Sequence record: AB897757.1 | Origin: Klebsiella phage K64-1 | Direction: 5' to 3' (one strand) | DNA length: 64,000 bases | In this document: positions 3,919 to 63,786 of the stretch, one piece after another | How the letters are laid out: each line of letters starts with the position of its first letter | Numbering within the stretch: position 1 is the stretch's first letter | The notes under the pieces: generated by a model | What the model saw: only the letters and a program-made list of their open reading frames with translations | Told to the model about the DNA's origin: nothing | The model's database searches: none | Position numbers and translations under genes: made by a program

Positions 3919-3925
3919 TAAACAA

Positions 3926-3989: not shown

Positions 3990-4025
3990 TATTATGGAAA
4001 ATCACATTTACAAGGAAAGTGTATT

Positions 4026-5759: not shown

Positions 5760-5761
5760 AA

Positions 5762-6691: not shown

Positions 6692-6696
6692 TATAA

Positions 6697-6727
6697 AAGG
6701 GAGACATTAAGTCTCCCTTTTTTTATA
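6697..6727. terminator. bidirectional rho-independent terminator between td (+) and the 510-aa gene (-)
   Basis: aagggagac-attaa-gtctccctt flanked by A-run and T-run. Confidence 0.7.
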
Positions 6728-8255: not shown

Positions 8256-8419
8256 TTATATATTTCCTCAATAAGTAATATTGTATATGGTATTTATTTT
8301 TCGATAATAAAAAAAGTTATTCTTGGAATTATATGTTTACACACAAACTACGGTACTTTTTCCATGAAAAATATATTCTTTATTTTTAATAAATTATTAT
8401 ATCAAAATCTTGAACCGTA

Positions 8420-8767
8420 TTATACAGATGGTATACTAATAAGGGGTTTCCATATACCGTTGTCTTTGATAAAAATATTAACGATGTTGGTTGTATCAAT
8501 TTGGTAATATACATTACCATCTTCACCTGTACTGGAATCTGGAATATCTGTTCCTCGTAATATAGTACTGTTTAATTTAGTATTAAGATGGTTTAATGTA
8601 ACCAGATGTTGATCTTTGGTAGGTTCACCAGCTTCCACTGGCAATAATAGTGTGCCTTCGTAATTATAAATTTTTACATCGGTACCATCTGTGCTTAATT
8701 TTGCACCATTTTTACCAAGAACAAAATCCTTCTTCATAGTCCCTTCTAAGTTAGAAAAAATTGCCAT
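8420..8767 (-). CDS. small tail-fibre-associated protein
   Basis: 115-aa ORF between two fibre-like genes; C-terminal GEDGNVYYQID...IWKPL resembles fibre tip/assembly motifs. Confidence 0.3.
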   Translation of the reverse strand: MAIFSNLEGTMKKDFVLGKNGAKLSTDGTDVKIYNYEGTLLLPVEAGEPTKDQHLVTLNHLNTKLNSTILRGTDIPDSSTGEDGNVYYQIDTTNIVNIFIKDNGIWKPLISIPSV

Positions 8768-8779
8768 TATATCATCTCC

Positions 8780-15697: not shown

Positions 15698-16195
15698 ATG
15701 AATCTACAAAAACTATTTAAAGTAAGCGATGATCTGGCAACTTCTCTTGGTCATACATATCTTACTATTGACCATATTAGTGCTACACTTCTTGAAGTTG
15801 ATAGTATTGTAGAACTATTCAATACCATGAATATTGATACAAATAAACTTCACAGTCGTGTGATGAATTTTCTGAAAAGTACTGAATATCCAAATCAACC
15901 GGCTAGTATGTCAGCTAATGGGACTAACAGTAGTTCTTTGTTGGTAAATCGCGTATTCAATGAACTGTCAAAAAAATCAGTTATTGAACAACTTAAACGT
16001 GATGATTTTACAATTGATTCATACTTTGTACTATTTGAATGCTTGTCTTTCCCAAATACAGCAAAGGCGTGTCTCGCACTGAAGCAGCACGTGCATTACA
16101 AAAACATGTGGCGAAAATCGATAGTTCCATCAATCTACAAAGTATTGCTGAAGATCCTAATTCATCAGATAAGAAAGCGACGGCGGGACAAATGA
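15698..16195 (+). CDS. ClpA-like N-terminal domain segment (frame A of a split ClpA-like gene)
   Basis: Residues resemble the Clp N-domain repeat; the frame ends at 16195; it overlaps the AAA+ body ORF, which is in the -1 frame. Confidence 0.5.
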   Translation: MNLQKLFKVSDDLATSLGHTYLTIDHISATLLEVDSIVELFNTMNIDTNKLHSRVMNFLKSTEYPNQPASMSANGTNSSSLLVNRVFNELSKKSVIEQLKRDDFTIDSYFVLFECLSFPNTAKACLALKQHVHYKNMWRKSIVPSIYKVLLKILIHQIRKRRRDK

Positions 16196-17990: not shown

Positions 17991-18023
17991 AAAGGAGAGC
18001 ATAAAAGCTCTCCTTTTTTTTAT
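17991..18023. terminator. bidirectional rho-independent terminator
   Basis: ggagagc-ataaaa-gctctcc followed by a T8 run; A-run on the other side. Confidence 0.7.
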
Positions 18024-21000
18024 TATATAACATTTAACAAGTTATTGAGTACCAAACCGTCAATTTTCAATGAATTAGCATACACACTTACATCAATTGG
18101 TTTGTAATAATTTTTATAAACACTAAAATTAAGTTCAACACCAAGATTGATACCAGTGAATGTATATGTTTCACCTTTAGCAAAATAGTGTTCAGCACTA
18201 TACATATCTGAACGAAGGATATTGTTATTATTTCGCACATGAACTTTTTCATATCCAAGTACGATAATATCATCATAACTAGTACTACCAGTAATGATAT
18301 TATCCTTAACACTATATGTACCAACTGAAACTGGCTCCACCACATAAGTGGTATTTTCATTCTCAACTTTAGTAACACTGGTTACTGTACAAGTTGTATC
18401 ACCGATATACACTTTATCTGTTAAATCATATGAGTAAGTCCATCTTACACCATCGAACACAGGTTTAATATCATCGACGTCATATTCATATACAGTAAAC
18501 TCTAAACTTTCTGGAGTTCCAATACGAACCAGTTCATCTAATGTACCAACACCGGTATTTGGCATGAAATATCCACTATCAACCACACCATCAGAAGTTT
18601 CAACTAACTCATTAGAGATTAGCCAAACATCCAAATCTAATGGATCTATTTCATCCGTGTAATCACCATTATTCAAAGAAATATCATAGAATACATCATA
18701 GTCCATAACATCAACTCTGTAATTTCTTATACTTTCATACAACAAATCACCATTGTTATTGAACTCATGGTCTGCAAAACTTCTAATACGAATAACATTT
18801 ATACTTGTTTTTGTATAAGGTTCACCAGTATTATTAGTGGTTAAATTATTAAACTCAAGTTTATTTCCATTTAAATCAACCAAAGAATAAACTCCGTTGT
18901 TAAGCTCAACTTCAAACATAATAGGTCGATCATTCTCTTTGATTTTATCAGTACTGAGAATAAGTTCATGAGTAAAGTTCTGGTATCTGTAATAATCATC
19001 ACCATCTGGGGTAAACACCATAACTTTATCACCACTATTGAGATTACTATTTTTCATCAAGAATTCAGTACTGCTTATAATACTATCAATAGTACTGATA
19101 TAATTATAAGAGTCTTTCTTAATTACTGTGCGGTTTACATAGTTTTGTACCAGACTATATGGAGGAATGCTCACAATAGCTTCTGTACGCTTGTATGGAT
19201 TGAGAACAACAAAACCCTCTATCTGGAATCGACTAAAGTCTTTAATCTGCTGTAGAGATGTAGAATCGTTACTATAACCATCTACTGTAAAACGCATTTG
19301 TGAAATAGCATTAGCACTTGGGTTCAACTCGGAAATATCAATGAAAACTGATTCAGTCAAATCACCTTCGTAGCTCAGTGCGACAGTTTTATATTGAGAT
19401 TCCAAACCTAAATTATCATAAGCATTCATATCATTATAATACTTCTGCCCCTTGATTCCCTCAAGTACAACCATGTAGTCACTGTACATTGGATTATTAT
19501 CATCCATTTCCAGATCATCCATATCAATCTCAACTGCTGTAACTACTGAACCATCAGTAATGAAAAGATCTTCCATATATTCATCAATGCTACGATCATC
19601 AGGAATACTAACATAACTACCGTTAATATTGAATCTAATATATTTTCTCGGGATCATTACAAATGCCTGAATATCCATTGATTTACGATTACTATTCAGA
19701 ATATCCTCTGCATATGCATAAGGATCATCACTGTCTTTATCAAACGTGTTACGAATAGCAGTTAGTACATGGATAGCATCTTTGTAATAACGACCCTGAG
19801 AATCAATATCATATTTGAAACAATAGATACCGTATTCAATTTCCATTACGCTTCTGATGGTTTCTTCATCAGCATCTGGTGTTTCTTCCAAAATAAGTTC
19901 TCTATAATGGGCGAATAAATCCTCACTAATTTCAAAATATCCCATGTTGAAGTCAGAACTTGAACTAAAACCAAAAGGTAATCTCGTATTCGGATTATCA
20001 TTGTAAATTTCACCACTCAGACCACAACCAATGGTATCATGGATTACATCTGAACTCATTGAACTATAAAGTTTTAATCTATTACTCAATGTATTATATT
20101 GTGAATACATTCTAACATCTTGTGTTAAGTTAGAAGTACTATACAATTCAGAAGTGATTCTGTCTAAATCAGAAGTGAAACTTTCAGTTCTTTCAGCATC
20201 ATCAACGTTCAATTTATACCATGCATTGATAGCATCAACTAAATCCAGACTTGTATCAAAATCAGAATATAGTTCAAACATATCAACAGAAATCTGAGTA
20301 TAAATTTCATCTACCTCAACAACTGGTAGTGTATACTTGAAACGCTGGATTTCATAGTACTGTACATTATCATCAGAATTACTTACATACTTAGCATTGT
20401 TCTCTTCCAGACTTGTAACATCATATAAATCACTATCAGGCTGGCATTGAACATTATCAAATTGCATTGAGATATCAATTTCCTGGAATTTTCTATCTGG
20501 GTAAACGAAGTCGTTTGGTATTGAACCAACTACCACCCATTGTCCAGTACTTTCATTATATTCAGCATATTCATGATCCCAAATATCAGATTGTGTTTTA
20601 ACCCAAATTGTACCGTTATATTCATAACCATTTGGATCTAAATCATTACAAACACCATAAACATAATCAGTGTCGGATGTTTTCTGTTCAATTTGAGAAC
20701 GAATTTTAGTCCTGTACGGTTTAACTTCATTGAAATATTCAATAATCTGATTAATCAATTCGTCATTAGTGTAATTTTGTTTAAGTGATTGTTCTAACCC
20801 AACAATATAAATGTATGAAGTTTTGAATACCCAATCAACCACACCCTGTTCAACGTGTACGTATTTAACCATGTCAAATACAATATTACTTTGAGCTAAA
20901 TCGAATGTATTTTTGATTAAATCTAATGCACTTCTTACATTAATTTCCTTGTTGCTTAAAGAACCATCACTGTTATAAACTTCATACCCATCATATAAAG

Positions 21001-23011
21001 ATGAATTAAGAGCGATTGTGCTGTTTTGACGCCCAATAGCATTCCAGAATACAGTATTACGTGATGATGTTTTCACATACATTGTCCATCCATCTGAATC
21101 AGTGATTCGAATAACATCACCAACTTGATAGTTTTTGGTATTAGCTATATCCAGGCTGGCTTCCTGAGTATAATCAGTATTTTCATCATACCCATCACTA
21201 TACCAGTCAGCATATTCCCAGTACTGGGTCATGTCAAGAGAAGTACCAAGTGATTCAACATAATCACTCTGTTTAATCATACTATGTTGTCCTTCACCTA
21301 GACCTTCCAGTGTGATTGTTGATGGATTAGCATCAATACTCTTTGTAGTCATGAATCTTATATAACCATTACTATCGTAGTGGACGAAATATACTGAAGT
21401 TGTATCTAGCGGGGATGGTAATACACCAGTACTACTCAAAATTACTGCATCGTTTTCATCGAATTTATCAAAATCAGTTGAGACAACAAATTCGTTATTG
21501 TATGCCAGAACCCTGAATGTAACTGAATTTTCATTCACCTCAGTAGTTTTAACATTGAAAACTTCACTCATTAATACCGTATCAGTTATGATATTTTGTG
21601 TTTTGTAATAATTATTTGCACTATCTACAAACGTTCTGCGAGCTTCAATCAAATCCATAAACCAGGTTTTAGATGAACCCAACCCTAATTCTACATCAGG
21701 ATAAACAATTTCATTTACTACACCACTCTTCGTGGTTTCGTGTCCTTTCAGAGAATTCCACAGAGAATTCCATATATCTGAATTGAAATTATAGCTATCT
21801 CCTTCTTTACATAGCTGATATTGTTCATGTTTAATAATATCAACACTATCTTCATGATAAGAAACTGTCAAAATGCTGGTATCATCAGTAATTTCATATT
21901 GCATATTACTAAGAATGAATGAATTCTCGTTAATTGGTGCAAACCAAGGAACGTCCAGTAAATGTGGATCTTTAATAATACGTGCAATATCAGTACATGA
22001 TTTACTTCTGGTGTTAATTGGTGGTACATAAATTGTATCTCTTACCCAGAAATAATAATACGTAACATATGAATCAGTTGTTTCATCATACTCAATGAAT
22101 GAAGTATAATTATCCATGATTGCAGTACCAGAAGGTATATACATAGTGTTATTTTTATTATTTTTAGTTTGTTCCTGACAGTATTTGTCCCAATTATATG
22201 GCTGTACTGGAGATTTAACCCACTCAAGAACATTAATATCACTATGTGGTAGCAATCTACCCCAGTTATAACGACGATATTCATTTGTAGCATCTTCATC
22301 AATGTCACCATTCTCATCCAGTACTGGGCGAGTGTAATCCAAATAAAATGCAGTACTGGTGTCCCACCATACTTGACCAACTTTCTCAGAACCCCATGCT
22401 TGAAGAGTTTCTCCATTGCTATTGTACTGAGCAGGGTCTACTGGAGAGATATAAGATACATCTTTCATTGCAGTCCCAGGTAAAACACCATTAATTGGGT
22501 CAAATATATTAAGATATAATTCAGTAATGTTTGTTTTTGAATTATAAGTAGATGGTCTATCAAATAAAGTACTATCTGGAACATCAAAACTGTATTTTTT
22601 ATCAATATATGCCTGACGTTCGGTTGTATCACTGAATCTGGATGTATATTTGTACAGTTTTGGTCTTGTATCTGGATCAGTGAAATTAATTGTGATACTT
22701 GTATCAAACGGAACAACAATTTTAGTTTTATCATCCCCTGCCGTGAAATATTGACTTTCTACTGTTAATGCATCTGGCATAAAATATGTATCATCAACAA
22801 AATAATAATAATCACCATCATCTAATGGAGCTTCGGCATCTAATTGAACAGTACAGTACTGTTCAGCATAAGTATCAGTATTTTCAATTGGAGTAATTGA
22901 TAACATAGATACACCAGTATCAACTAAATCAAAAATGTTCCATTCCTGATTCATATCAACGAACATCCACACTGAATCTGGATTTTCACCATTATTTTTA
23001 ATATAATTCAT
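18023..23011 (-). CDS. giant baseplate / tail-fibre structural protein (1662 aa; gp8-gp12-equivalent region by synteny)
   Basis: Lies on the late minus strand between the gp7-like giant and the terminator; open frame continues upstream to an in-frame TGA at 23108-23110. Confidence 0.45.
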   Translation of the reverse strand: MNYIKNNGENPDSVWMFVDMNQEWNIFDLVDTGVSMLSITPIENTDTYAEQYCTVQLDAEAPLDDGDYYYFVDDTYFMPDALTVESQYFTAGDDKTKIVVPFDTSITINFTDPDTRPKLYKYTSRFSDTTERQAYIDKKYSFDVPDSTLFDRPSTYNSKTNITELYLNIFDPINGVLPGTAMKDVSYISPVDPAQYNSNGETLQAWGSEKVGQVWWDTSTAFYLDYTRPVLDENGDIDEDATNEYRRYNWGRLLPHSDINVLEWVKSPVQPYNWDKYCQEQTKNNKNNTMYIPSGTAIMDNYTSFIEYDETTDSYVTYYYFWVRDTIYVPPINTRSKSCTDIARIIKDPHLLDVPWFAPINENSFILSNMQYEITDDTSILTVSYHEDSVDIIKHEQYQLCKEGDSYNFNSDIWNSLWNSLKGHETTKSGVVNEIVYPDVELGLGSSKTWFMDLIEARRTFVDSANNYYKTQNIITDTVLMSEVFNVKTTEVNENSVTFRVLAYNNEFVVSTDFDKFDENDAVILSSTGVLPSPLDTTSVYFVHYDSNGYIRFMTTKSIDANPSTITLEGLGEGQHSMIKQSDYVESLGTSLDMTQYWEYADWYSDGYDENTDYTQEASLDIANTKNYQVGDVIRITDSDGWTMYVKTSSRNTVFWNAIGRQNSTIALNSSLYDGYEVYNSDGSLSNKEINVRSALDLIKNTFDLAQSNIVFDMVKYVHVEQGVVDWVFKTSYIYIVGLEQSLKQNYTNDELINQIIEYFNEVKPYRTKIRSQIEQKTSDTDYVYGVCNDLDPNGYEYNGTIWVKTQSDIWDHEYAEYNESTGQWVVVGSIPNDFVYPDRKFQEIDISMQFDNVQCQPDSDLYDVTSLEENNAKYVSNSDDNVQYYEIQRFKYTLPVVEVDEIYTQISVDMFELYSDFDTSLDLVDAINAWYKLNVDDAERTESFTSDLDRITSELYSTSNLTQDVRMYSQYNTLSNRLKLYSSMSSDVIHDTIGCGLSGEIYNDNPNTRLPFGFSSSSDFNMGYFEISEDLFAHYRELILEETPDADEETIRSVMEIEYGIYCFKYDIDSQGRYYKDAIHVLTAIRNTFDKDSDDPYAYAEDILNSNRKSMDIQAFVMIPRKYIRFNINGSYVSIPDDRSIDEYMEDLFITDGSVVTAVEIDMDDLEMDDNNPMYSDYMVVLEGIKGQKYYNDMNAYDNLGLESQYKTVALSYEGDLTESVFIDISELNPSANAISQMRFTVDGYSNDSTSLQQIKDFSRFQIEGFVVLNPYKRTEAIVSIPPYSLVQNYVNRTVIKKDSYNYISTIDSIISSTEFLMKNSNLNSGDKVMVFTPDGDDYYRYQNFTHELILSTDKIKENDRPIMFEVELNNGVYSLVDLNGNKLEFNNLTTNNTGEPYTKTSINVIRIRSFADHEFNNNGDLLYESIRNYRVDVMDYDVFYDISLNNGDYTDEIDPLDLDVWLISNELVETSDGVVDSGYFMPNTGVGTLDELVRIGTPESLEFTVYEYDVDDIKPVFDGVRWTYSYDLTDKVYIGDTTCTVTSVTKVENENTTYVVEPVSVGTYSVKDNIITGSTSYDDIIVLGYEKVHVRNNNNILRSDMYSAEHYFAKGETYTFTGINLGVELNFSVYKNYYKPIDVSVYANSLKIDGLVLNNLLNVI

Positions 23012-23107
23012 GCGGTCTTCATATGAATCCTGATAAGTCCATGTAGTATAAGATACTTCATTTAAATTAACTGGGCCAATATCAGGTAAATGGATATTAT
23101 CACTCTT

Positions 23108-26100
23108 TCAGCGGAATTTACCTTTAGGACGAGTAATCCATCTGGAATCTTCACCTTGTGAACCATAATAAACTATTTCAGTACTACTTGTACTTGTATT
23201 AACATCTTTATTAAACGTAACCAGTTGTGGTTCTTGTTTAAAATCACTGTTAATTAATTGAAATTGTAAATTTTTCTTGGCATTAACGTTTCCATAAGTA
23301 CCAACTTTAAAAGCCCACTCTTGTAGTGCTTTATATTCATCAGTATTATATGATTTAGATACACGAAGAACGCGTTCCATTACCAAATTAGAGCCTTTAT
23401 CTCTAATAAAACCACGATAAAAATCAACACGGTTGGGATTATTAGTGATCATTTGCTGTAAGTAATCACGAGTTTGATATCCAATAACATGAGTACTTAG
23501 ATCATACAGTTGAACATCAGAAACAGGATCATTTGAATCATAATAATGTTGGAAATTAGTAACTAATGTTTCAAATGATGGTAATGTACCAGCTTCAAGA
23601 ATTATAAATCCGGGTGCTTGTAGGCGACCAACCCAGTTATCAGTGATATAACCGTACATTTTCACCAATTCCTGAATAGAACCGAATGTAGGTTGATAAA
23701 TGCTATCACCAAAAATAGTTTTATCATCAAATACCACTGCATGTTCCCATGAACATACACCTAAACGAACCAACGCCATGCGTTTATCGGCATCTTCATT
23801 AACTCTAACAGTGAAAACATTACCAATTCTTGATGTTTCAACTTCATATGGGTAGATACCACTGTTATCATCGTCCAACAGACTCCAGACACCACCATTT
23901 GTTTCACTAATACTTTGTACTGAGCCAAAATAAGTTCCGAATTTGGCATTTTTAGAGCTTGGTGTACATGAAATGTAATCACCAATGGTTAAATCTGTGG
24001 TACTCCATTGTAAAAAGTACTTAGCAATAGTAGACCAGTCCTGTTGTACCCCAGTGTCATCAACATCTTCAAAAATCCATCCATGTTCAACAAGATATTG
24101 ACCATATCCACACAGGAATGTATAAACATCCTGGAATGTGTTAAGAATAGATCCATATTCAAGCGTATCATCTTCTTTCCATTCCATATAATGAACAACA
24201 GTGCGATTTCCTTCAGTTACGGTTACTTTTTTACCATTTTTAACTGGTAATTTATAAGTAAACGTAGCATTAACCAAATCATAACCTTTAATAATATAAT
24301 TACTACCATTGAAAGTGATTTTAACTGCACTAAGAACTTCATTTTTGATATTATTAGAGCGTACCAGTCCGATTGTTTGGTTTTCTTGTGAAATTAAACC
24401 AAACGATTCAGATGTAAATGTTAATTCATTGCTCTTTGTAAATCCACCAAGCTTGTGTGCAATACTGATGTATGAAGTTCTAACTAAATCACCATATTTT
24501 GAAGTAATATTCTTACTTTGATAGGTTAAGTAGTTACTAACAGCCATTTGATAACCAAGAACACGAGTATTATTTTCACCATGAACCACCGTATCTGAAT
24601 TAAAATTCAGTCGAGTTCTGGTTTCTTTGTACTGCAATTGTAAACCACCATTTTTTACAGTTTTTAGTGTATCATTTAGTGTATCCCAGAAATAATTACA
24701 GAATTGTGCTGGTTTTGCACGATATATCTGCATCATTACATCATAACTAAACATTGCGTTATTCATATAGGTGAATTCGTTGTCACCCATATCACCATAA
24801 GACCATGGTGCACTGCGTTCTTTGATCGTACCTTTTACTAAACCAAGAACGTCAGGTTGAATATAATCAACGGTACAAATTTCTTTACCATTAGTTGAAT
24901 ATTCACCTGTTTTAGTAATTACAAATGGTTGAGTACCAAAACGCTTGTACTTATCATGCTGTCCCTTACGATCTCCATATAAAATGGTACCAGTACTGGC
25001 ATCACCTTTAACACCATTAACATCCCAAAGACCACTTGGTACTAATTCACCACTTTCATTAACAACCAATGCTTCATATACATATAAAATGTCATCTTCA
25101 TTTGTGCCTACCTGAACTTCAGTTGGTTCATATTCCTGATTCCACCAGGTTGGACGAACACCAAAGCCAAACATTTCCCATGGATGAGTTGCAGGGCGAT
25201 AAGTCCCGAACTGATCAGTATATATGGCACGCCAAGAACCACGTGCAGGAAAATCGGTAATTACACCATTAACTGTATAATAGGTACCACTATAATTCCA
25301 CGTCATCCAGTTTTGTTGGTCATAATTATGAGTAGTACTGTCAATTCCGTTGGTTGCAATGAAGTTAATATACCCACGTAGTAATAATTCATCACGTTCT
25401 TCTGCACTATACTCAGTATCCCTGTAATATGGTGTTGGAAACAGATCTGAACTATCAAGTTCAGGTTGATAATCTTCATCTTTGAAAGTATTATCAATAC
25501 TGTTATAAATTCTATTCTCAAGTTCATAGATAACATCATCCATTTTATCTACACCGTTAATAACACGATAAGATTTGGTAATTTCACCAGTATGACGAAT
25601 ATTATACGGTACTTGTTTGGATGCAGCAGTCAGGTATACAGTTTTTTCTGGCTTATGTACTTTAAGAACACCCATAAATTGTGGTGTAGGTGGAATAAAA
25701 GTACGAATTGTAGTTGTAGTACTCCCTACGCCATCGTAATAGAACGCAAAAGTAGAATCTTTACCAACATTAATGTTACTCAAAATAGTATCACAAATAT
25801 CACTACTTGAAGTGCTTAAAAATTTACTTGGGTCTTCTTTATACATATTAAGCATGTAGTTTTCAAATCTGTTATTAAAACGAAGATATTCACCTTGTAA
25901 AAACATTAATGCTTCAAAAAGATCAATATCACTATTAGCAGTATGTGCCATTAGTGGAAGTAGTGATCCTTCGTTTTGAATAATTTTAGTACCAACAGCA
26001 TTATCAACTAACCCTTGTTCAAGACGTTCTTCATAATCATTGATATTATCCACGGCACCAGATGTGATATTTTTTTGTACAATTTCCTGAAAATGTAAAG

Positions 26101-27988
26101 TATAATTACTTTGATCAATATAAGAAATATTATCACTATATGGGTTATTTTGTAAATTTACTGGAATTTCATAACTACCAAGATCGGTATCTGGTACTTC
26201 AGTACTACTATAAGTTCTGATTTGAATCACACTTTCAGAGTCCAAATCAACAGAGTCACCAATGGTGATGCTTTGTACTTTACCATTAGACACATTTCTT
26301 GTATAATCTTCAACTACAACACCATTGACCTGAATTTCAATGATATCTGAACTTCCATCAATGACTTTTTGTGCCAGTTCATAACTGCGGTTATACAATT
26401 CACTCTGAATACCTTCAGTGTTTACCATATGCCAGTCATAATAAGTTTCAGATTCTTCTTTGTAGTATTGATAGGTTGCATTGGTTTCAATAACATATGC
26501 ATACATACCATCAATGGCTTGACTGGAAAAGCTTTCCATTTCATATACAGTACTGAACACTCTGTACATATCAGTGCGTTCAACTTGAGGTGTTTGTTTT
26601 ACAAATTGTTTAGAAAATTCAGTACTACGAACCCAGTCAGTTTTTAATACACTATCTTCATCACCAATGATATTGTAATAATAAAATCCAGGGATTTCTT
26701 TAGTTTCACCAGAACTGATGTATTCATAACGAGTACTTTCAATAAAATTTTCGTATATATAATAATTATAATCACCCAATTCTACATTATATCCATAATA
26801 ACTATCAACTTTGTAGTTGTAGTTAATTTTTAGTCCAAACAGAGAAGAACCACTGAAGGTACTTGACGGATATACAGTACTATCTTGTAATTTTACACCA
26901 TTTCGATCATATAACTGGAAAAGAGGGAATGCATTTGTTCCATTCTTTTTCTGAGTTGCAATCCAGTTATGCCCATTCCAGTACATAGTGGTATTTCCAT
27001 AAACTTTACCACTTTTAATTAATACAACATCACCATCAAGTGGTTCACCACTTACACGTTCTGGTGTTTCTTCATCTGGGTCTAATGCTAAACCATAAAC
27101 GCGAGTACCATCCTGCATTTGGTTGATGTATACTTTATAAATTCTGTTATTTTCACCACTGTTACCAATGCTGGTAAAAAGAATACGCATTCCGTCTAAT
27201 GGGATTTGTCCATCAATACGAATACCCTGATTAATATCTTTTTGTACGATATCTTCTGGTTTTAATGAATCACTTAGTAGATCCACCACACCACGGAACT
27301 GTGTACCAAAATTGATTAGTTCGATATCTTTGTTATATTCAATAATTGGTACTTGTGCACGTACAAAACGATTATCATATGATAATTCATCATTCAGTAC
27401 TGAACCATCTGGTAAAGTATCACCAATGGTATACCAGAAGTTTTGTAATGACCATAAGTTTCCGTTTTTAGCATTACGTTGCATTACAACATAATCAGGA
27501 CTAGCGATACCATATTCATTTTCAGTATCCCAAAGATATGAACTAAAATTAATCATTTTATTTGGATTAATTGGTGGAGTCCATGAATAAATTCTTGAAT
27601 TAAACAGTCGGCTTTGATTATCAGTAATTGCACCATAATGATTCATATAAGAAACCAGATCATCATAGAATTCAATACTACGAATACTTTGATCTACATT
27701 ACGGGAGACATAAGCTGGAGATAACTGATATGCTTGGCGTGGTTGTGTTGATTCATTAACGAAAATCTTACCACTCGCTGCTGGAGAACCCATATCACCA
27801 AGATACCCATCAACGATTTTTTGTTCAGTGGGATTAAAGAATTGTTGAATAACATCATCACATACCTTTTGGATATCTTCCAAGCCTTGCATCCATTCTG
27901 GTAATCTCTTAATGAACAACTTTTGTTGTACTGCTTCAGCCGTTTTTGTTGGTTGAAACTTAAAATCATTAGCCATGTTTAGCTCCAT
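23108..27988 (-). CDS. giant baseplate wedge protein (1626 aa; gp7-like by position)
   Basis: Follows the gp6-like gene on the late strand; ends with TGA at 23108-23110; probable true start MANDFKF at 27976 (ggag RBS). Confidence 0.45.
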   Translation of the reverse strand: MELNMANDFKFQPTKTAEAVQQKLFIKRLPEWMQGLEDIQKVCDDVIQQFFNPTEQKIVDGYLGDMGSPAASGKIFVNESTQPRQAYQLSPAYVSRNVDQSIRSIEFYDDLVSYMNHYGAITDNQSRLFNSRIYSWTPPINPNKMINFSSYLWDTENEYGIASPDYVVMQRNAKNGNLWSLQNFWYTIGDTLPDGSVLNDELSYDNRFVRAQVPIIEYNKDIELINFGTQFRGVVDLLSDSLKPEDIVQKDINQGIRIDGQIPLDGMRILFTSIGNSGENNRIYKVYINQMQDGTRVYGLALDPDEETPERVSGEPLDGDVVLIKSGKVYGNTTMYWNGHNWIATQKKNGTNAFPLFQLYDRNGVKLQDSTVYPSSTFSGSSLFGLKINYNYKVDSYYGYNVELGDYNYYIYENFIESTRYEYISSGETKEIPGFYYYNIIGDEDSVLKTDWVRSTEFSKQFVKQTPQVERTDMYRVFSTVYEMESFSSQAIDGMYAYVIETNATYQYYKEESETYYDWHMVNTEGIQSELYNRSYELAQKVIDGSSDIIEIQVNGVVVEDYTRNVSNGKVQSITIGDSVDLDSESVIQIRTYSSTEVPDTDLGSYEIPVNLQNNPYSDNISYIDQSNYTLHFQEIVQKNITSGAVDNINDYEERLEQGLVDNAVGTKIIQNEGSLLPLMAHTANSDIDLFEALMFLQGEYLRFNNRFENYMLNMYKEDPSKFLSTSSSDICDTILSNINVGKDSTFAFYYDGVGSTTTTIRTFIPPTPQFMGVLKVHKPEKTVYLTAASKQVPYNIRHTGEITKSYRVINGVDKMDDVIYELENRIYNSIDNTFKDEDYQPELDSSDLFPTPYYRDTEYSAEERDELLLRGYINFIATNGIDSTTHNYDQQNWMTWNYSGTYYTVNGVITDFPARGSWRAIYTDQFGTYRPATHPWEMFGFGVRPTWWNQEYEPTEVQVGTNEDDILYVYEALVVNESGELVPSGLWDVNGVKGDASTGTILYGDRKGQHDKYKRFGTQPFVITKTGEYSTNGKEICTVDYIQPDVLGLVKGTIKERSAPWSYGDMGDNEFTYMNNAMFSYDVMMQIYRAKPAQFCNYFWDTLNDTLKTVKNGGLQLQYKETRTRLNFNSDTVVHGENNTRVLGYQMAVSNYLTYQSKNITSKYGDLVRTSYISIAHKLGGFTKSNELTFTSESFGLISQENQTIGLVRSNNIKNEVLSAVKITFNGSNYIIKGYDLVNATFTYKLPVKNGKKVTVTEGNRTVVHYMEWKEDDTLEYGSILNTFQDVYTFLCGYGQYLVEHGWIFEDVDDTGVQQDWSTIAKYFLQWSTTDLTIGDYISCTPSSKNAKFGTYFGSVQSISETNGGVWSLLDDDNSGIYPYEVETSRIGNVFTVRVNEDADKRMALVRLGVCSWEHAVVFDDKTIFGDSIYQPTFGSIQELVKMYGYITDNWVGRLQAPGFIILEAGTLPSFETLVTNFQHYYDSNDPVSDVQLYDLSTHVIGYQTRDYLQQMITNNPNRVDFYRGFIRDKGSNLVMERVLRVSKSYNTDEYKALQEWAFKVGTYGNVNAKKNLQFQLINSDFKQEPQLVTFNKDVNTSTSSTEIVYYGSQGEDSRWITRPKGKFR

Positions 27989-40635: not shown

Positions 40636-41514
40636 ATGACACGCCCACGCAGAAAAAAATATCTCAATAATGCAGATCTATTGAGAGAAATTCAAAAAAG
40701 CAAAATGACATATTGTTCTGTAATAGATCCTATATACAATATGTATGATTTCATTGTTTTTGATGAATCAGAAATCGATGAAGAGATTCTACAAAAAGCA
40801 AAAACTGCAAGAATCAAACGTCTAAATAATGAAATCCTCGAAAATACAAGGAATGTTCTGAATTGTGGAACTAAAAAGGCTCGTGAACATTGCATTGAAC
40901 AGGATTTATTCTTAAAAGATGTACCAGATGATGAAGTTGTTATTAGAGTAATCACAAATGAACACATTCCAGAAGGAACACGTACAAATTTCGAAGCATT
41001 TAAGCAATATATTATCAGTACTGATGGTGAATTGATTGAAGTTGCTAGAAGTCACTGGAAAGGTGATTTTGAAACCGGAGAATTCACTGTTAATGGTGGT
41101 AAGTTAACTAATGAGCTTGGTAAAATGTTCATTAAGCTGGTTGAAGAGATTTCACATAAAGCTAATTTTAGAAATTATACATACTTAGATGAAATGCAAG
41201 GTGAAGCACGAATTCAGTTGGTAAAAAATGCTCTACTTTTCAAAGAAAGTATGTTGTACAAAAAAGATAAACCTACTAATCAACTAAATCCATTTTCTTA
41301 TTATACAAGTTTCGTAACTAATTCGTTTCGTTCTGTTCTTAATAGTGAAAAAACTGTTCGTAATATCCGAGATGATTTATTGGAAATCAACGGTTTCACT
41401 CCATCACATACACGTCAATTGGAAATTGAAGTACAAATGATTGAACGAAAGAAAGAAGAAGAACAGGAACAAGAAGAAGAGAAAAATATCGATGAAAACC
41501 GACATTTTATTTGA
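40636..41514 (+). CDS. gp55: late-transcription sigma factor gp55 homologue with a ~100-aa internal insertion and an acidic C-terminal tail
   Basis: [11 protein letters not shown] ~ T4 [57 protein letters not shown] ~ T4 [64 protein letters not shown] ~ T4 NPHAYITQACFNAFVQR (all from memory). Confidence 0.7.
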   Translation: [292 protein letters not shown]

Positions 41515-44686: not shown

Positions 44687-44720
44687 AAAAAGGGGAGCAT
44701 ATTAGCTCCCCTTTTTTATT
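44687..44720. terminator. bidirectional rho-independent terminator; the stop codon of the minus-strand GIY-YIG gene lies in its loop
   Basis: ggggagc-atatta-gctcccc with A8 upstream and T6 downstream. Confidence 0.7.
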
Positions 44721-45733
44721 ATTGTCATAATTTCATTCAACGATGCAGGTGATACGGTTTCAGTCCACCCATCACCGAATAATTCTTTTGTTAAGTGTCT
44801 TGCTTTTATGGTTCTTTTTATTTCTTTTTCTATGTTAAATGCATCATTACAATTTTCATATACTTTGTGGTATACAACATTCAATTTGTACTTACATTTA
44901 TTTTTATATGAACCCATTCTGTGTTTGATATTCTTTGTTATACCGAATTTATAACCAACTATATTATTATAATCATCAGATACTTCTAAAATGTATATAC
45001 CTGAACTAAAATCAGAAGATTTATAACCATTTTTGTAACTAACAGAATTACACAAAGGACACCCTTTATCTCGCATAAAATTGTCATATGTCATAGACCA
45101 TGTATAATTGCATTTACAAGTTAAAATGACTTTACTAAAAACACCATTAAAGTTCTTTTCATCTATTAATTCAAATTTAATGCCAGTTTCTTTGCTTTTA
45201 ATTTTTAAATTCTCATTTAATTCATTTATACTGTATTTGTGAGTACCTGAACATTTCAAACAACCAATATTATTACTGAAAAATGAATCATAAGTGGTAG
45301 TATTCCATTCGTATGCTTCAGAATGTTTAGTATTGTCATTGCATTTTAGTTTTAAATATGTTTTTGTTTTATTATATTCATCAAACCCGAGGAATTCCAG
45401 TGTCCCACCTCGTTTAATGCATTCATTTTCCACATTTTGAATTAAAATTTCAGGTGTTAACTTATTCAATGAAGGCTTTCTGAACTTTTTTGATTCTATA
45501 TTTCTCAGATATCTATATAATTTGTTAATTCTGTAATTATTATAAGTTATATTATCATGTGTTATTGAAGTAAGTGTATTATTACCTAACCATTTTTCTT
45601 CAATAATGAATCCATTGAATTTTATATTAAATTTGGATAACCTTTTCGATAAATCGTTGAAATATTCCCATGGAGTTCTGGAATTATAGTTAACGTGAAC
45701 TAAAATAATATCATCTGGTAAAGATATTATCAT
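44702..45733 (-). CDS. zinc-ribbon-repeat protein with C-terminal GIY-YIG nuclease domain (homing-endonuclease-like)
   Basis: C-terminal GIYILE...GYKFGIT...R...E...FGDGWTET; N-terminal repeated CLKCSG / CPLCNS cysteine pairs; paralogue of 55731-56957. Confidence 0.55.
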   Translation of the reverse strand: MIISLPDDIILVHVNYNSRTPWEYFNDLSKRLSKFNIKFNGFIIEEKWLGNNTLTSITHDNITYNNYRINKLYRYLRNIESKKFRKPSLNKLTPEILIQNVENECIKRGGTLEFLGFDEYNKTKTYLKLKCNDNTKHSEAYEWNTTTYDSFFSNNIGCLKCSGTHKYSINELNENLKIKSKETGIKFELIDEKNFNGVFSKVILTCKCNYTWSMTYDNFMRDKGCPLCNSVSYKNGYKSSDFSSGIYILEVSDDYNNIVGYKFGITKNIKHRMGSYKNKCKYKLNVVYHKVYENCNDAFNIEKEIKRTIKARHLTKELFGDGWTETVSPASLNEIMTIIKKGS

Positions 45734-51788: not shown

Positions 51789-52562
51789 ATGGCTAATCTA
51801 AAACTACTACAAGAAGCGATTCAGGCTTTTGCAAATGGCGAGCAAGAAGTCGCGGATACTAAAATGCGTCAATATTTCATTGAAGCTGCAAGTGATATTA
51901 ATAAAAAACTTGAAGAAGAAATGGAAGACGAAACTGACGATGAAGTAATGGAAGACTTCTCTATGTCTCCATCTCAAGATCTGAATACCGATGTACAATA
52001 CCCAATGGAAGAAGCTGAAGAAGAACCAACTGACGTTGAAGTTGATTTCCAAGCTGATGATGAAGGTGCAGATGATTCTGCTGAAGCAGAACTACCAAGT
52101 GCTGATCAATGGGCTGATATCCAGGATGCATATCGCGGTCTACAGAAAATGTTTGATGAAATCGCTGGTTCCGACGAAGTTGAACTAGGTGACGAAGAAG
52201 AACCTACTGAAGACGGTTTCGAAGATGTTTCTTTTGGTGACGAAAAAGTTGGTGAATCTTATAAAATGAAAGATGCTCCAAGTGTAGATAAAACTGAAAA
52301 ACCAGGAGTTAACAAAAAGTCTCCAATTGCTTCTACTGCTAAGTCTCCAGTACAAGGTGTTGAACCAATTAAAACTGGTAAAAACACCACTCCAGTAGTT
52401 GACGATACTTTTGACGGTGCTGATGCTGAATCTTTCACTATCCCACGTGATAATGACAATGTTCTTAATAAAGCAACTGATGCAATGAAAGATGCTAAGC
52501 AACCAAAAAATACCGCTACTAAAGCTAGTTCAGTACTACCTAAAAAAGCACCTAAACTATAA
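51789..52562 (+). CDS. highly acidic protein (prohead core / internal protein candidate)
   Basis: 257 aa, D/E-rich throughout; lies between the portal and prohead protease genes, where T4 has core and internal protein genes. Confidence 0.45.
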   Translation: MANLKLLQEAIQAFANGEQEVADTKMRQYFIEAASDINKKLEEEMEDETDDEVMEDFSMSPSQDLNTDVQYPMEEAEEEPTDVEVDFQADDEGADDSAEAELPSADQWADIQDAYRGLQKMFDEIAGSDEVELGDEEEPTEDGFEDVSFGDEKVGESYKMKDAPSVDKTEKPGVNKKSPIASTAKSPVQGVEPIKTGKNTTPVVDDTFDGADAESFTIPRDNDNVLNKATDAMKDAKQPKNTATKASSVLPKKAPKL

Positions 52563-54364: not shown

Positions 54365-54459
54365 TATTTTTAACGCATATTTTAACCACCTTTTTCAGTA
54401 CTGATAAATAACTTTATATTGAAAAAGATTTTAATAAAATTATCTAAAGGAGACTTTAA

Positions 54460-54765
54460 ATGTCTAATAAACTACTAACTGAATCTCAATGGGCCGCGAC
54501 CAAAGAACGTATTACCGAAGGTCTAAAAGGCAGTCGTAAACGTGTGATGGATATTACTATGGATAACTATCGTCGTGAGCGTGCATTATTTGAATCTGCT
54601 ACTGCTGGTGCTACCACTGCTGGTAACATTGCTTCTGTTAACAAAGTAATTCTACCAATCATGCGTCGTGTATATTGGTGTACAACCAATGACTGGTCCA
54701 TACTGCCAGATTCATACTCTACGTGTTCAATATGCAACCAATGCTCCAGGTGTTGCTGCTGGTGA
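54460..54765 (+). pseudogene. gp23: major capsid protein gp23, N-terminal segment (frame A); the frame is lost after IMRRVY
   Basis: TTAGNIASVNKVILPIMRRVY parallels T4 gp23 AAGQTSGAVTQIGPAVMGMVRRAIP; the remaining residues of this ORF are nonsense (Cys/Trp-rich) before a TGA. Confidence 0.6.
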
Positions 54766-55615
54766 AGAAGCTCTATCTCCATACAAAATCGCCAAATCTT
54801 ATACTGGTGAACTGAATTCTGATAACACTAGCCCACAAGCCGCTCCTACTTCTCAACTAGAAGGTACTATGGGTCGTCAGGTAAATATCAACATTCTACG
54901 TGAAATCGTTGAAGCCAAATCCCGTCGTCTCTCTGCTCGTTGGACTGTTGAATCTATGCAAGATGCACAATCTCAACACGGTGTTGATATTGAAGCTGAA
55001 CTGGTTAACGCAATTGCTCAAGAAATTACTGTAGAAATCGACCAAGAACTACTTTCTCGTCTACGTGCACTACCTGGTGCTCCAGCAGTGACCTATGACC
55101 AAACCAAAGTAACTGGTGTTGCTACTTTTATTGCTGATGAACACGCTTCTCTGGCAATTCTAATCAACCGTCAGGCAAACGAAATTGCTCGTCGTACCAA
55201 ACGTGGTGCAGCTAACTGGGCTGTTGTTTCTCCAGAAGCACTATCTATTATTCAGTCTGCAACTACTTCTAGTTTTGCACGCAGTACTGAAGGTACTTTC
55301 GAAGCACCAACCAACGTTAAATTTGCTGGTACTCTAAATGGTACTATGCGTATCTACGTTGATACCTATGCTTCTGATCTGGAAGATATCCTGATTGGTT
55401 ATAAAGGTGCTAACGAAACTGACGCTGGTGCATTCTATTGCCCATACGTTCCACTGATGGCTACCGGTACTGTAATGGATCCAAATACCTCCGAGCTAGT
55501 GACTTCCTTCCTGACTCGTTACGGTTATCTGGAATTCGTGGATTCATCCTCTTCCTTTGCAAACTCAGCCGATTACTTCAGCAAAATTGCTGTTCGTAAC
55601 GTTACTTTCATGTAA
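54668..55615 (+). CDS. gp23: major capsid protein gp23, main body (frame B, +1 relative to the N-terminal segment)
   Basis: GVQPM, INILREIVEAKSRRLSARWTVESMQDAQSQHGVDIEAELVNAIAQEI, IARRTKRGAANWAVVSPEAL, MRIYVDTYASD...IGYKGANETDAGAFYCPYVPLM match T4 gp23 blocks. Confidence 0.8.
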   Translation: MYIGVQPMTGPYCQIHTLRVQYATNAPGVAAGEEALSPYKIAKSYTGELNSDNTSPQAAPTSQLEGTMGRQVNINILREIVEAKSRRLSARWTVESMQDAQSQHGVDIEAELVNAIAQEITVEIDQELLSRLRALPGAPAVTYDQTKVTGVATFIADEHASLAILINRQANEIARRTKRGAANWAVVSPEALSIIQSATTSSFARSTEGTFEAPTNVKFAGTLNGTMRIYVDTYASDLEDILIGYKGANETDAGAFYCPYVPLMATGTVMDPNTSELVTSFLTRYGYLEFVDSSSSFANSADYFSKIAVRNVTFM

Positions 55616-55659
55616 TAAAATAAAAAAACTAAAAATAATATAAAATATTGTATTTTTTA

Positions 55660-55690
55660 TGGGACTTCACTTTGAAGTCCCATTTTTTAT
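55660..55690 (+). terminator. rho-independent terminator after the capsid gene
   Basis: tgggacttca-ctt-tgaagtccca followed by a T6 run. Confidence 0.75.
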
Positions 55691-55730: not shown

Positions 55731-56957
55731 ATGATGACATTTGATGAAGTGCATGAACAATTTATTAAAATTGGTAATAAGAGAGAACCATCTTATTTTA
55801 AAAAAATAATTTTAAAAGAAATTGAAATGTATAATTTAAATTATGAATTTATTGGGTTTAATATTAATTCTATTATTGAATTTAAAGGAGCAAGAACGAA
55901 GTTAGTACTAAAATGTCCAGTACATGGTATTTTTTCTGATTGTACTTTCAATAATTTTACAAAATCTAATGCACAGGGTCGCCGCTGTCCTGAATGTGCT
56001 AAAGAATCTAAAGCTTTGAAACAACGTTGTTGTACTGAAGAATTTATTGAAAAATGTAAAAGAGTACATAATGATTTTTATGATTACAGTAAGACTATAT
56101 ACGGAAAAAATGCTCATGAACACGTTGTTGTTACCTGTAAATTACCAAATCATGGAGATTTCAAAATACGTCCTTCATGTCATTATAATAAAGCACAAGG
56201 TTGTCCTATATGTGCAAAAGAAAAAAGAAAAATTGATGAACAGGATATAATAACCAGATTAAATGAAATACATAATAATCACTTTGGATTTGATAAATTC
56301 GTATATAATGGATCGGAAAATAAATCTATAGTAACTTGTTTAGTGCATAATAAAAATTATGAAGTTAAAGTTGGGAGTTTACTTTATGATCATGGCTGTG
56401 CATTGTGTTCAACAAGAGCAAAACACACAAAAGAATCATTCATATCGATGGCAGTACTGAAACATGGTAATGTATATGATTACAGTAAAGTACAATATGT
56501 AGATTTATTCACTAAAGTTGAAGTTGTTTGTAATAAAGATAATCATGGTTCATTCTTTATTACTCCAACAAGTCATATACATGGTTTAAAACCAAATGCA
56601 TGTCCAAAATGTTCAAAATATGGATTTCAACCAAATAAACCTGGATTCTTTTATATTCAAAAAATAACTAATTCATGTAAAGAAGTTATATCTTATAAGT
56701 ACGGTATTACATGTGATTTAATAAGACGATTGAATGAGCATAACAGAAATTCTATATATGTGCATGAATATATTTTTCATGAATACTTTGATAATGGGTA
56801 TGAAGCAATTGAACTTGAAAAGCTTATAAAAAAATCAATTCCTTCTTGGTATTTGAATTCTAATGAATTTGGTGATGGTTTCACTGAAACATACGATCCT
56901 AAATACCACAAAGATGTTATTAATATAATCAAAAAACAACAAAGGAGAAATCCATGA
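55731..56957 (+). CDS. zinc-ribbon-repeat protein with C-terminal GIY-YIG nuclease domain (homing-endonuclease-like), paralogue of 44702-45733
   Basis: Five cysteine-pair modules (CPVHG..C, RCPECAKE, GCPICAKE, CALCSTR, CPKCSKYG) then GFFYIQK...SYKYGIT...R...NEH...E...FGDGFTET. Confidence 0.55.
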   Translation: MMTFDEVHEQFIKIGNKREPSYFKKIILKEIEMYNLNYEFIGFNINSIIEFKGARTKLVLKCPVHGIFSDCTFNNFTKSNAQGRRCPECAKESKALKQRCCTEEFIEKCKRVHNDFYDYSKTIYGKNAHEHVVVTCKLPNHGDFKIRPSCHYNKAQGCPICAKEKRKIDEQDIITRLNEIHNNHFGFDKFVYNGSENKSIVTCLVHNKNYEVKVGSLLYDHGCALCSTRAKHTKESFISMAVLKHGNVYDYSKVQYVDLFTKVEVVCNKDNHGSFFITPTSHIHGLKPNACPKCSKYGFQPNKPGFFYIQKITNSCKEVISYKYGITCDLIRRLNEHNRNSIYVHEYIFHEYFDNGYEAIELEKLIKKSIPSWYLNSNEFGDGFTETYDPKYHKDVINIIKKQQRRNP

Positions 56958-60408: not shown

Positions 60409-63400
60409 ATGTATATTGATGCATATATGGAACGAAAACGTAGTGGTGATGTGTTGCATGTAGTAGAACGAAAAAATGGAAAGCGTATTCTACGAGAATT
60501 ACAACCACTATATGAGTATTATGTAGAAAATGTTAATGGTAATCACAAAACCATTTATGGTACTAAAGCAGAAAAACTGGAATTCGATACTGCATCTGAA
60601 CTAAAACGAAGTATAGAAAAAAATGTAGCAAATGGAATCAGAACATTTGAAGGTAAATTCAATGTTGTATTCAAAACACTTGCTCAATATTATATGGGTA
60701 CTGAATCACCAGATTTAAACATTGTATTCTTCGATATAGAAACTGATTTTCATAAGAAATTTGGTTATGCATCTCCATCTAATCCCTTTAATCGTGTAAC
60801 AGCCATTTCATTATATCAGTCATGGACAGGTAAAGATTATGTACTTACCCTTGCTCCAGAAGATATGACAACAACAGAAGCACAGGATATTGTCAATAAA
60901 CTAAATGCGGAAACTAATGATCCAAATTCAAGTGTAATTCTTTATACTGATGAAAAGGAAATGTTCATGGATTTCTTTAGTCTAATTGATGATAGTGATG
61001 TATTATCTGGATGGAATAGTGAATTTTTTGATATTCCTTACATGATTAACAGAACCAAAATTATCTTCAATGAAGCCATGACTGCTCGTTGGTGTTTATG
61101 GAATAAAAAACCAATTGCACGTGAAGCGGATAACTTTGGTAAATTGGTACAGACTTATGATTTGGTTGGTCGAGTTCATCTTGATTATCTTGCTCTTTAT
61201 AAGAAACACGCTGCTCAGGTAGAGCAATCGTATAAACTTGATTATATCGCAGAAAAAATCACAAAAGAAAATAAAGTACAGTACGAAGGATCTCTGGATA
61301 AATTATATAGAGAAGATTATATGACTTTCCTTCGATATTCTAAACAGGATAGCATTCTTCTCAAAAAAATCGATTCTATTCTTGACTATATTAGTCTGCA
61401 TAACCGACTTGCACATAAAGAATGTGTTCTCATCAAAACTACTATGGGTTCAGTAGCACTGATTGACACTTCAATTATCAATCTAGCACACAAACGTGGT
61501 GAAGTGGTATTTGATAAAAAAGAAGAGGTTGAAATTGATCCAGAACTTGAGTACTATGATGGATACGATGATGATGAAGACAATAATGATTCAAAACTCA
61601 GTGCAAAAGCAGCAGGTGCATGGGTACAAGACCCAATATTAGGATTAGTTGAATACTTGGGTTGTACTGACTTTAACTCACTTTACCCAACTGTACTTCG
61701 AACTCTAGGAATGAGTACTGAATGTATTCTTGGGCAAATTAGACAAGATTATACAGAAAAATACTTAGAAGAACGTATATCTGAACAAAAAGCAAAGTCT
61801 AAATCAAAATCATTTGAACCGGAGTGGACAGCAGCATGGCATGGTTTATTCGCCGCCGTGGAGTTTACGATGGTACATGAAAGAAGTGAAAAACTACTGA
61901 CTATTGATTTAGAAGATGGTAGTTCTTTCCAGGCAACGGGTTCACAGTTATATGATATTATATTCAGTCCAGAAAGTACTATTGTACTTAGTGCAAATGG
62001 AACACTATTTGATAAATCAAAATATGGTGTTATTCCAGATATCCTAACGCAATGGTATTCTGAGCGTAAAGCCCAGCAAAAAATGGTAATTGATTATAAA
62101 CATATGGCTTCAGATGGTTGGGAAATTCCATCACCTGATATTGTTCAAAATATGTTTTCACAATTCAGTACTAAATCATACTATAAAACAAACCTTCATG
62201 AAGAAGATCCAGTATATCTTCTACGTAAAGCTATAGGTGATAATAATCTTGAAGAAATTTCTCGTCTTATTGTAGAAAATAATTTAGTACTAAAAGATGG
62301 ACGTATTTTTTGTTCAGATGAGGATAAAAAATATTTCAAACAACAAAGTGCTTTCTGGAAACAAAACCAACAAATTCGTAAAATTCTTCTAAACAGTCTT
62401 TATGGTGCACTATTGAACAAAGGAAGTACTTTCTTTGATAAACGACTTGGACAATCAGTAACACTAACTGGCCGCTCAATGACAAAACACATGGCAAGTC
62501 GCATTAATGAAATTACTACTGGGGTTTATAATCACACTGGTGGTAGTGTTATATATGGTGATACCGATTCTGTGTACTTCAGCGTTGTTCATTATTTAAA
62601 AGAACAAAACATTCCATGTGATCTAAGTAAAGAAGAGATTGTGGATATGTATATAAAAATTGGCGATGAAGTGGGTGAATCTTTTCCTGAATTTATGGAC
62701 AAAATGTTCAATACTGGAATTGAAAAAGGTAAAATTGTAGGTGCTGATCTGGAAATGGTTGGCTCCCGAGGGCTGTTCCTTAAAAAGAAACGTTATGCTA
62801 TACTGAAATATTGGGAAGATGGGTTCCGTAAAGATGTTGATGGTAAACCTGGTGAAATCAAAGCAATGGGGCTTGAGATTAAGCGTTCAGATACACCAAA
62901 ATACATCCAGAACTTCCTTGAAGAGACTTTAATGGCATTACTGGTAGGGGAGTCCGAGAGTGAATTAAAACAGCGTGTACGTGATTTTAAGGCGGTATTT
63001 AAGGACAAACCAGCACACGAAAAGGGTTCGCCTAGAACAGTGAAAAATTATTCAAACCTTGAAGCTGATTTTAAAAATACTGGTAAATGTCATGTAGGTC
63101 ACGTCCTCGCTGGTATTCAATGGAATATGTTACGCAATGCATATGATGATAAAACTGTGCCAGAAGTTACTGATGGTACTAAAGTGATTGTATGTGATTT
63201 GAAACCAAATCCACTTGGAATTACTAAAATTGGTTATCCAATTGATTGTGTTGAGTACTTACCTGAGTGGTTCCTTGAATTACCGTTCGATACAGATAAA
63301 ATGGAAGAAATTATCTTAACTAAAAAACTGGATAATATCTTTGGTATTCTTGATATGGATATTGGTATTCATGAAAAAAGTACTGCACAGGATTTTGGAT

Positions 63401-63411
63401 TTTTCTCGTAA
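60409..63411 (+). CDS. gp43: family B DNA polymerase (gp43-like), exonuclease plus polymerase domains
   Basis: Exo I FFDIETD, Exo II-like YSKQDS, Pol motifs NSLYG (motif A region), KILLNSLYGAL and YGDTDS (motif C); 1000 aa. Confidence 0.9.
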   Translation: MYIDAYMERKRSGDVLHVVERKNGKRILRELQPLYEYYVENVNGNHKTIYGTKAEKLEFDTASELKRSIEKNVANGIRTFEGKFNVVFKTLAQYYMGTESPDLNIVFFDIETDFHKKFGYASPSNPFNRVTAISLYQSWTGKDYVLTLAPEDMTTTEAQDIVNKLNAETNDPNSSVILYTDEKEMFMDFFSLIDDSDVLSGWNSEFFDIPYMINRTKIIFNEAMTARWCLWNKKPIAREADNFGKLVQTYDLVGRVHLDYLALYKKHAAQVEQSYKLDYIAEKITKENKVQYEGSLDKLYREDYMTFLRYSKQDSILLKKIDSILDYISLHNRLAHKECVLIKTTMGSVALIDTSIINLAHKRGEVVFDKKEEVEIDPELEYYDGYDDDEDNNDSKLSAKAAGAWVQDPILGLVEYLGCTDFNSLYPTVLRTLGMSTECILGQIRQDYTEKYLEERISEQKAKSKSKSFEPEWTAAWHGLFAAVEFTMVHERSEKLLTIDLEDGSSFQATGSQLYDIIFSPESTIVLSANGTLFDKSKYGVIPDILTQWYSERKAQQKMVIDYKHMASDGWEIPSPDIVQNMFSQFSTKSYYKTNLHEEDPVYLLRKAIGDNNLEEISRLIVENNLVLKDGRIFCSDEDKKYFKQQSAFWKQNQQIRKILLNSLYGALLNKGSTFFDKRLGQSVTLTGRSMTKHMASRINEITTGVYNHTGGSVIYGDTDSVYFSVVHYLKEQNIPCDLSKEEIVDMYIKIGDEVGESFPEFMDKMFNTGIEKGKIVGADLEMVGSRGLFLKKKRYAILKYWEDGFRKDVDGKPGEIKAMGLEIKRSDTPKYIQNFLEETLMALLVGESESELKQRVRDFKAVFKDKPAHEKGSPRTVKNYSNLEADFKNTGKCHVGHVLAGIQWNMLRNAYDDKTVPEVTDGTKVIVCDLKPNPLGITKIGYPIDCVEYLPEWFLELPFDTDKMEEIILTKKLDNIFGILDMDIGIHEKSTAQDFGFFS

Positions 63412-63423
63412 TGATGGTGATAT

Positions 63424-63786
63424 ATGTTTGAAGATGAAATTCAAAGGAATAATGAATTGTATGAAGAGTATAAAAAAATGAAATCTGAAACAAAACAAAA
63501 GAACATTAACATAAGAATTACAGAATGTCTAATGAGTAATACTATCGATTCAGTACTGGCATATGATGCAATAGATGAGGACATTCTAACCAAGAATGGT
63601 TTCGTTAGAACAGGAACTATTTCTTTGTGTAATGAGATTGTTGGTGTTTATAGAAACCCAGTAAATAAAAAAACTTTTACTATAGAAATTGGTGATGATG
63701 TAGAACATCCATCAAATTTCATTGAAAAGGTTAACAATGAAATAATTAAAAAATCAGATAAACACTATCTGTACAACTGGAAATAA
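63424..63786 (+). CDS. hypothetical protein (RegA-sized; candidate only by size and position after gene 43)
   Basis: 120-aa ORF directly after the polymerase; no convincing motif match. Confidence 0.3.
   Translation: MFEDEIQRNNELYEEYKKMKSETKQKNINIRITECLMSNTIDSVLAYDAIDEDILTKNGFVRTGTISLCNEIVGVYRNPVNKKTFTIEIGDDVEHPSNFIEKVNNEIIKKSDKHYLYNWK

Follow-up and report, generated by a model that had tools for sequence, protein, structure and literature searches.

A private 26-nt deletion interrupts the major capsid protein gene in the deposited Klebsiella phage K64-1 genome and very probably reflects an error in the record

Introduction

The major capsid proteins (MCPs) of the Klebsiella jumbo phage RaK2 (gp23, AFA44367.1) and of phage Muenster (QOE32504.1) belong to the T4 gp23 family. 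In both phages, and likewise in RCIP0023, the protein is specified by a single 1182-nt ORF encoding 393 amino acids, and hundreds of homologues in our search were between 387 and 395 amino acids long. T4 gp23 sheds its first 65 residues on maturation. Programmed recoding signals, such as that of T4 gene 60, are conserved between related phages and preserve an intact protein.

The genome of Klebsiella phage K64-1 (AB897757) comprises 346,602 bp, and its GenBank file is incompletely annotated (PMC5259590). ΦK64-1 is infective and attacks 10 capsular types (PMC6872550). Here, we analysed a stretch of 64,000 nt of this record, referred to as the window, which is ~99.3% identical to RaK2 across all 64 kb and similarly close to RCIP0023, Muenster, KP13-7 and other phages over the stretches searched. 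The MCP gene of the window is the same gene as that of RaK2 and Muenster and lies in the same gene order (portal, protease gp21, scaffold, MCP, endonuclease-like ORF and tail fibre), but it is 26 nt shorter and consists of two overlapping ORFs instead of one ORF of 393 codons.

Results and discussion

The MCP gene of the window is split into two reading frames

The MCP gene and its flanking signals contain the following features:

54447-54452, plus strand: Shine-Dalgarno-like AAGGAG, 7 nt before the MCP start codon, read directly from the sequence
54460-54765, plus strand: ORF A, 101 amino acids, made up of 71 genuine MCP residues and a 30-aa out-of-frame tail (YWCTTND...CCCW)
54460-54672, plus strand: 5' part of the MCP gene, codons 1-71 (MSNKLL...IMRRV) in the original frame, identical to Muenster MCP residues 1-71
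54668-55615, plus strand: ORF B, 315 amino acids from a GTG, frame +1 relative to ORF A
54673-55615, plus strand: 3' part of the MCP gene, third base of codon 80, codons 81-393 and stop, +1 relative to the 5' part and with 100% identity to Muenster MCP residues 81-393
54689-55615, plus strand: 308-aa remnant, exactly RefSeq YP_010843009.1, 'major capsid protein [Klebsiella phage K64-1]'
55659-55690, plus strand: intrinsic-terminator-like hairpin (11-bp stem, 3-nt loop) followed by a T run, 3' of the MCP gene

ORF A and ORF B jointly are one T4 gp23-type MCP. Both ORFs match PHROG 138 (major head protein), with E-values of 4.6e-06 for ORF A and 8.7e-77 for ORF B, which confirms the claim of the first-pass annotation that two gp23-matching ORFs lie in frames differing by +1. 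ORF B additionally matches the Pfam family Gp23 (PF07068) with an E-value of 6e-80, and membership in the T4 gp23-type MCPs is thus established by family profile. Residues 6-72 of ORF A correspond to PHROG 138 positions 5-72 and residues 3-311 of ORF B to positions 81-430; the eight profile positions in between (73-80) are absent. For the 101-aa product of ORF A, no exact match was found in a collection of 15 billion proteins. In the Muenster record, a ribosome-binding site is annotated at the place equivalent to 54447-54452 and a terminator at the counterpart of the hairpin at 55659-55690. The sequence GATAAATA at 54403-54410, ~50 nt 5' of the MCP start, resembles the T4 late-promoter consensus TATAAATA, and a gp55-like late sigma factor is also encoded in the window (40636-41514).

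Exactly 26 nt are missing from the gene

Alignment with RaK2, RCIP0023 and Muenster showed that exactly 26 nt (ATGCCAACCGTTATCGCTAACGAAAT) are missing from the MCP gene of the window between positions 54672 and 54673, with no further differences near this junction. The missing bases represent codons 72-79 (M-P-T-V-I-A-N-E) and two bases of codon 80 (I), and without them the reading frame moves by +1 modulo 3. The first-pass annotation had bracketed the join at 54668-54680, described about nine residues as absent and named a short deletion as one possible explanation; these statements were correct and can now be given to the nucleotide. Two of its coordinates need a minor adjustment, namely IMRRVY, which spans 54658-54675 and does not begin at 54661, and the G of GVQPM, which starts at 54677 and not at 54680.

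When the 26 nt are restored, a 1182-nt ORF is obtained, the 393-aa product of which is identical, residue for residue, to the Muenster MCP. The expected sequence of the intact allele is ...CGTCGTGTA-ATGCCAACCGTTATCGCTAACGAAAT-TATTGGTGTA.... A continuous ORF spanning the whole profile, including the RRxxPxxIAxxIxGVQPM block, is absent from the deposited sequence and present once the 26 nt have been added back. The single continuous ORF envisaged upon correction of the sequence is in effect recovered in this way, and alignment with gp23 of relatives does restore one frame, but through 26 nt rather than the indel of 1-2 nt that had been considered. A displaced copy of the 26-mer was not found elsewhere in the window, with up to three mismatches allowed. 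There are no amino acid changes in either half compared with the Muenster MCP. The gene carries no private substitutions, and a decaying pseudogene is not supported as an explanation, as both remnants are 100% identical to the Muenster protein.

The 26 nt are present in all eight other Alcyoneusvirus records of the phage collection. They are also present in seven further assemblies from Logan, ENA and NCBI, which were selected for encoding an intact MCP of identical sequence. A probe of 27-37 nt covering the junction had no match in viral, metagenome or genome contig collections. The MCP gene is single-copy, with one tblastn place per complete relative, which makes a back-up copy unlikely; the separate intact gp23 gene that the first-pass annotation had allowed for did not appear in these complete genomes.

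The deleted residues belong to the mature capsid protein

In a gap-free alignment with the mature gp23* chains of solved T4 capsid structures, the deleted residues and those upstream of them correspond to positions 15-46. Within this block, MPTVIANEI aligns with T4 IPNLIAFDI, immediately before the conserved GVQPM. The deletion therefore affects the mature protein and not merely the propeptide, and it would be lethal if real.

These alignments bear on the status of the 308-aa RefSeq product. YP_010843009.1 is frame B from its first ATG and treats the remnant as the gene, whereas our comparison shows it to be the 3' 79% of a gene that is disrupted in the record. One could argue that RefSeq is right in calling this product the MCP and that a frame-B protein of 308-315 amino acids is a real subunit, the lost N-terminus being a dispensable propeptide, in keeping with the maturation of T4 gp23. 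We consider this highly improbable: besides the match to mature gp23*, a T4-type cleavage motif, LFE/S, inferred at residue 45, would leave ~35 mature residues missing from such a subunit, and the hundreds of homologues of 387-395 amino acids also speak against it. Inspection by eye revealed nothing resembling a Shine-Dalgarno sequence (AGGAG or GGAGG) just 5' of either possible start, at 54668 or 54689.

Alternatively, the two frames might be joined during translation. A ribosomal +1 shift or hop within 54650-54676 would give an MCP of ~384 amino acids lacking ~9 residues, and recoding was among the explanations put forward in the first-pass annotation. Frame B opens at 54650, directly behind a TAA at 54647-54649, and the two frames overlap over 54650-54765, so that a +1 shift is geometrically possible. 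The frame change is not conserved, though: relatives at ~99% DNA identity have an uninterrupted frame and no conserved recoding site, and the eight Alcyoneusvirus records and the seven assemblies selected for an intact MCP are all single-frame. No recognisable +1 or slippery motif, and no shift site that would preserve the protein, was seen in the 27 nt available (54650-54676), as judged by eye. The product would also lose most of the RRv-MPTVIANEI-iGVQPM block, which is gap-free against T4 gp23, and recoding would explain neither the in-frame TGA in a giant virion protein gene nor the 22-nt loss in a Clp-like gene described below. The likeness to T4 gene 60-type bypassing or to +1 frameshifting, one protein spread over two frames, is only superficial: here, the reading frame of the relatives is unbroken, the window lacks bases instead of carrying additional ones, and a conserved motif has disappeared. 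With neither a frame change in relatives nor an evident shift-prone site, the chance that recoding accounts for the split gene appears practically negligible. The two cases can be told apart at the peptide level: the tryptic peptide VMPTVIANEIIGVQPMTGPYCQIHTLR is diagnostic of an intact MCP, and recoding would instead predict a junction peptide containing VYGVQPM or VYIGVQPM.

The neighbouring endonuclease-like gene

The gene following the MCP gene is listed here:

55731-56957, plus strand: putative endonuclease, starting 116 nt 3' of the MCP stop, matching PHROG 681 'endonuclease' (E 9e-84)

Its product contains zinc-finger repeats (Pfam DUF723, CapR) and a weak C-terminal T5orf172/MUG113 domain, for which the Pfam match stays below threshold (E 0.027-0.11). 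The first-pass annotation had named a GIY-YIG nuclease at this place; the ORF and its endonuclease character by PHROG 681 hold, but the domain assignment does not reach significance in Pfam. In UniRef, this protein and its paralogue encoded at 44702-45733 are both called 'GIY-YIG domain-containing'. The paralogue, which lies on the minus strand and is likewise a putative endonuclease with zinc fingers, has significant T5orf172/MUG113-type Pfam matches (E 1.7e-08).

The position of this gene gave rise to the earlier suggestion that the lesion is a scar left after the nuclease had cut near the MCP gene and the break had been repaired imprecisely. Proximity of the two genes is the point in its favour, but the lesion itself is 1,059 nt away from the endonuclease gene. 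RaK2 and Muenster encode a 100% identical nuclease-like protein, and in these phages an ORF of 408 amino acids occupies the equivalent position behind an intact MCP gene, so that the lesion does not co-occur with the nuclease gene. Nor is there a co-conversion tract or any flanking tract of polymorphism, the nearest private substitution being at 54178, 494 nt off. Two equivalent deletions are found in unrelated genes 31 and 38 kb away, and the nearest other recognised nuclease-like gene (44702-45733) is more than 20 kb from those two. Finally, a lethal scar in the single-copy MCP gene would not persist. We thus see only a very slight chance for a repair scar, and the endonuclease-like gene is a neighbour and not the cause of the lesion.

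The thymidylate synthase gene (5762-6691) is continuous in the window, RaK2 and SRR31188223 and split in RCIP0023 and ERZ1305919 by an insert encoding an I-TevI-like GIY-YIG endonuclease (td intron-like element; L006, L007: 11565-13522).

Two further private deletions break conserved genes

All 51 RaK2 genes were mapped onto the window and, besides the MCP gene, four differ. Two of these carry deletions:

16063/16064, plus strand: 22-nt deletion (CTAGAAGCTGCGTTAAAAGAAG), splitting a ClpA-like ATPase gene into 15698-16195 and 16039-17985
23109/23110, minus strand: 15-nt deletion (CTGAACGCATCGGGA on the plus strand), the junction of which makes an in-frame TGA (23108-23110)

The ClpA-like AAA+ ATPase is intact, with 769 amino acids, in relatives. 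The 15-nt deletion cuts the gene of a ~3326-aa virion protein (18023-27988, minus strand), named 'virion structural protein' in the RefSeq entry of RaK2, into two halves. At both sites, the missing bases are present in eight of eight relatives. For the two Clp fragments and the 1662-aa fragment, no exact match was found in the protein collection. A private T-to-A substitution lies at 16054, 9 nt 5' of the 22-nt deletion.

In the 41.8 kb of the window that are covered by at least three relatives, these three deletions (26, 22 and 15 nt) are the only private indels, next to 35 private substitutions. All three break long conserved ORFs, and two of the three affect virion proteins. The deleted segments have only a trivial CGTT tetranucleotide in common, as judged by eye. 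Microhomology amounts to zero bases at each of the three junctions, including that in the MCP gene, and replication slippage was rejected on this ground.

Could the phage stock itself contain these deletions? The 26-nt deletion is unambiguous in the record, and three lesions of this sort would in principle be compatible with a single defective lineage. This would be the case if the majority or a large fraction of the genomes in the lysate were defective and propagated by a helper through co-infection. Such genomes would be unable to form plaques on their own, whereas the ΦK64-1 isolate is infective, and they would have to outnumber the helper to become the consensus. In addition, neither half of the MCP has acquired an amino acid change, slippage-type microhomology is lacking and the junction occurs in no other assembly. 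A real deletion carried by defective genomes is, in our judgement, clearly unlikely. It is very unlikely, too, that the stock truly carries all three deletions, be it as a helper-maintained defective population or with an unprecedented recoding to a shortened capsid protein.

An error in the deposited record as the most probable cause

We propose that the deletion in the MCP gene was introduced into the deposited record by faulty assembly or consensus building and is very probably not a property of the phage, which makes the assembly error mentioned in the first-pass annotation the best-supported of its explanations. Only this one record shows the lesion, which independent assemblies of close relatives lack, and the same record contains two further ORF-breaking lesions of the same kind, of 22 and 15 nt, that are otherwise unexplained. 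The preference for a record error rests on the combination of three private, non-slippage, ORF-breaking deletions with perfectly conserved remnants in a phage that is infective, and on the restored product of an essential single-copy gene being identical to the Muenster MCP. It has to be said that a clean loss of 15-26 nt is atypical of a base-calling error and calls for an explanation by contig joining or consensus building, and that the sequence quality elsewhere in the window is good, as the low number of private substitutions shows. The missing bases may well have been left out when contig ends were abutted or a gap in coverage was closed; in that case, the actual phage would produce an intact 393-aa MCP.

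If so, the biological weight of the split gene is small, since the capsid gene of the phage is almost certainly intact and ordinary. The consequences for users of the record are more tangible. RefSeq propagates a truncated 308-aa 'major capsid protein' for ΦK64-1, a member of the genus Alcyoneusvirus with a RefSeq entry, and at least two other genes in the 64-kb stretch, those for the ClpA-like ATPase and the ~3326-aa virion protein, are broken as well. Phylogenies, core-genome counts and structural models built on the K64-1 record inherit these errors, and the record needs correction or re-sequencing.

The original annotation is of little help in deciding the matter. In the original record, the scaffold protein (BAQ02803) is followed directly by the downstream ORF (BAQ02804) in the accession series, showing that no product was annotated between them; as several intact small genes were likewise skipped, the missing MCP product says little. 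The MCP lesion is not discussed in the papers mentioning K64-1 that our search covered. Exact matches to the DNA polymerase (BAQ02806.1) and to the ORF at 44702-45733 (BAQ02800.1) were found only in K64-1. Two contigs, from the Logan assemblies of ERR7847573 and ERR7847536, match the window with 100% identity over 5.8 and 2.1 kb, respectively (within 3462-9308), so that a phage very close to ΦK64-1 has been sequenced independently. None of the contigs retrieved with the intact MCP as query came from these two data sets, and none was identical to the window.

Other differences between the window and its relatives

ORF101 (63424-63695) has a run of seven A residues near its 3' end (~63660-63667), where RaK2 has eight, and its C-terminus is changed accordingly; the length of its counterpart also varies among relatives (84 versus 120 amino acids). 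Natural variation of the homopolymer may account for this difference, as may a sequencing error. ORF068w is one codon longer owing to a harmless TAA-to-GAA change. The acidic protein encoded between the portal and prohead protease genes (51789-52562) has 257 amino acids in the window, RaK2 and DRR569829 and 260 in most other relatives, so that a low-complexity acidic region varies in length while the frame is kept. The DNA polymerase gene (60409-63411) encodes 1000 amino acids in the window, RaK2, Muenster and RCIP0023, and its product is annotated with 842 amino acids in KP13-7 and phiKp_21. KP13-7 matches the polymerase region in three pieces spanning ~2.9 kb more, which suggests an insertion, perhaps of a mobile element, in or near the polymerase gene of that phage.
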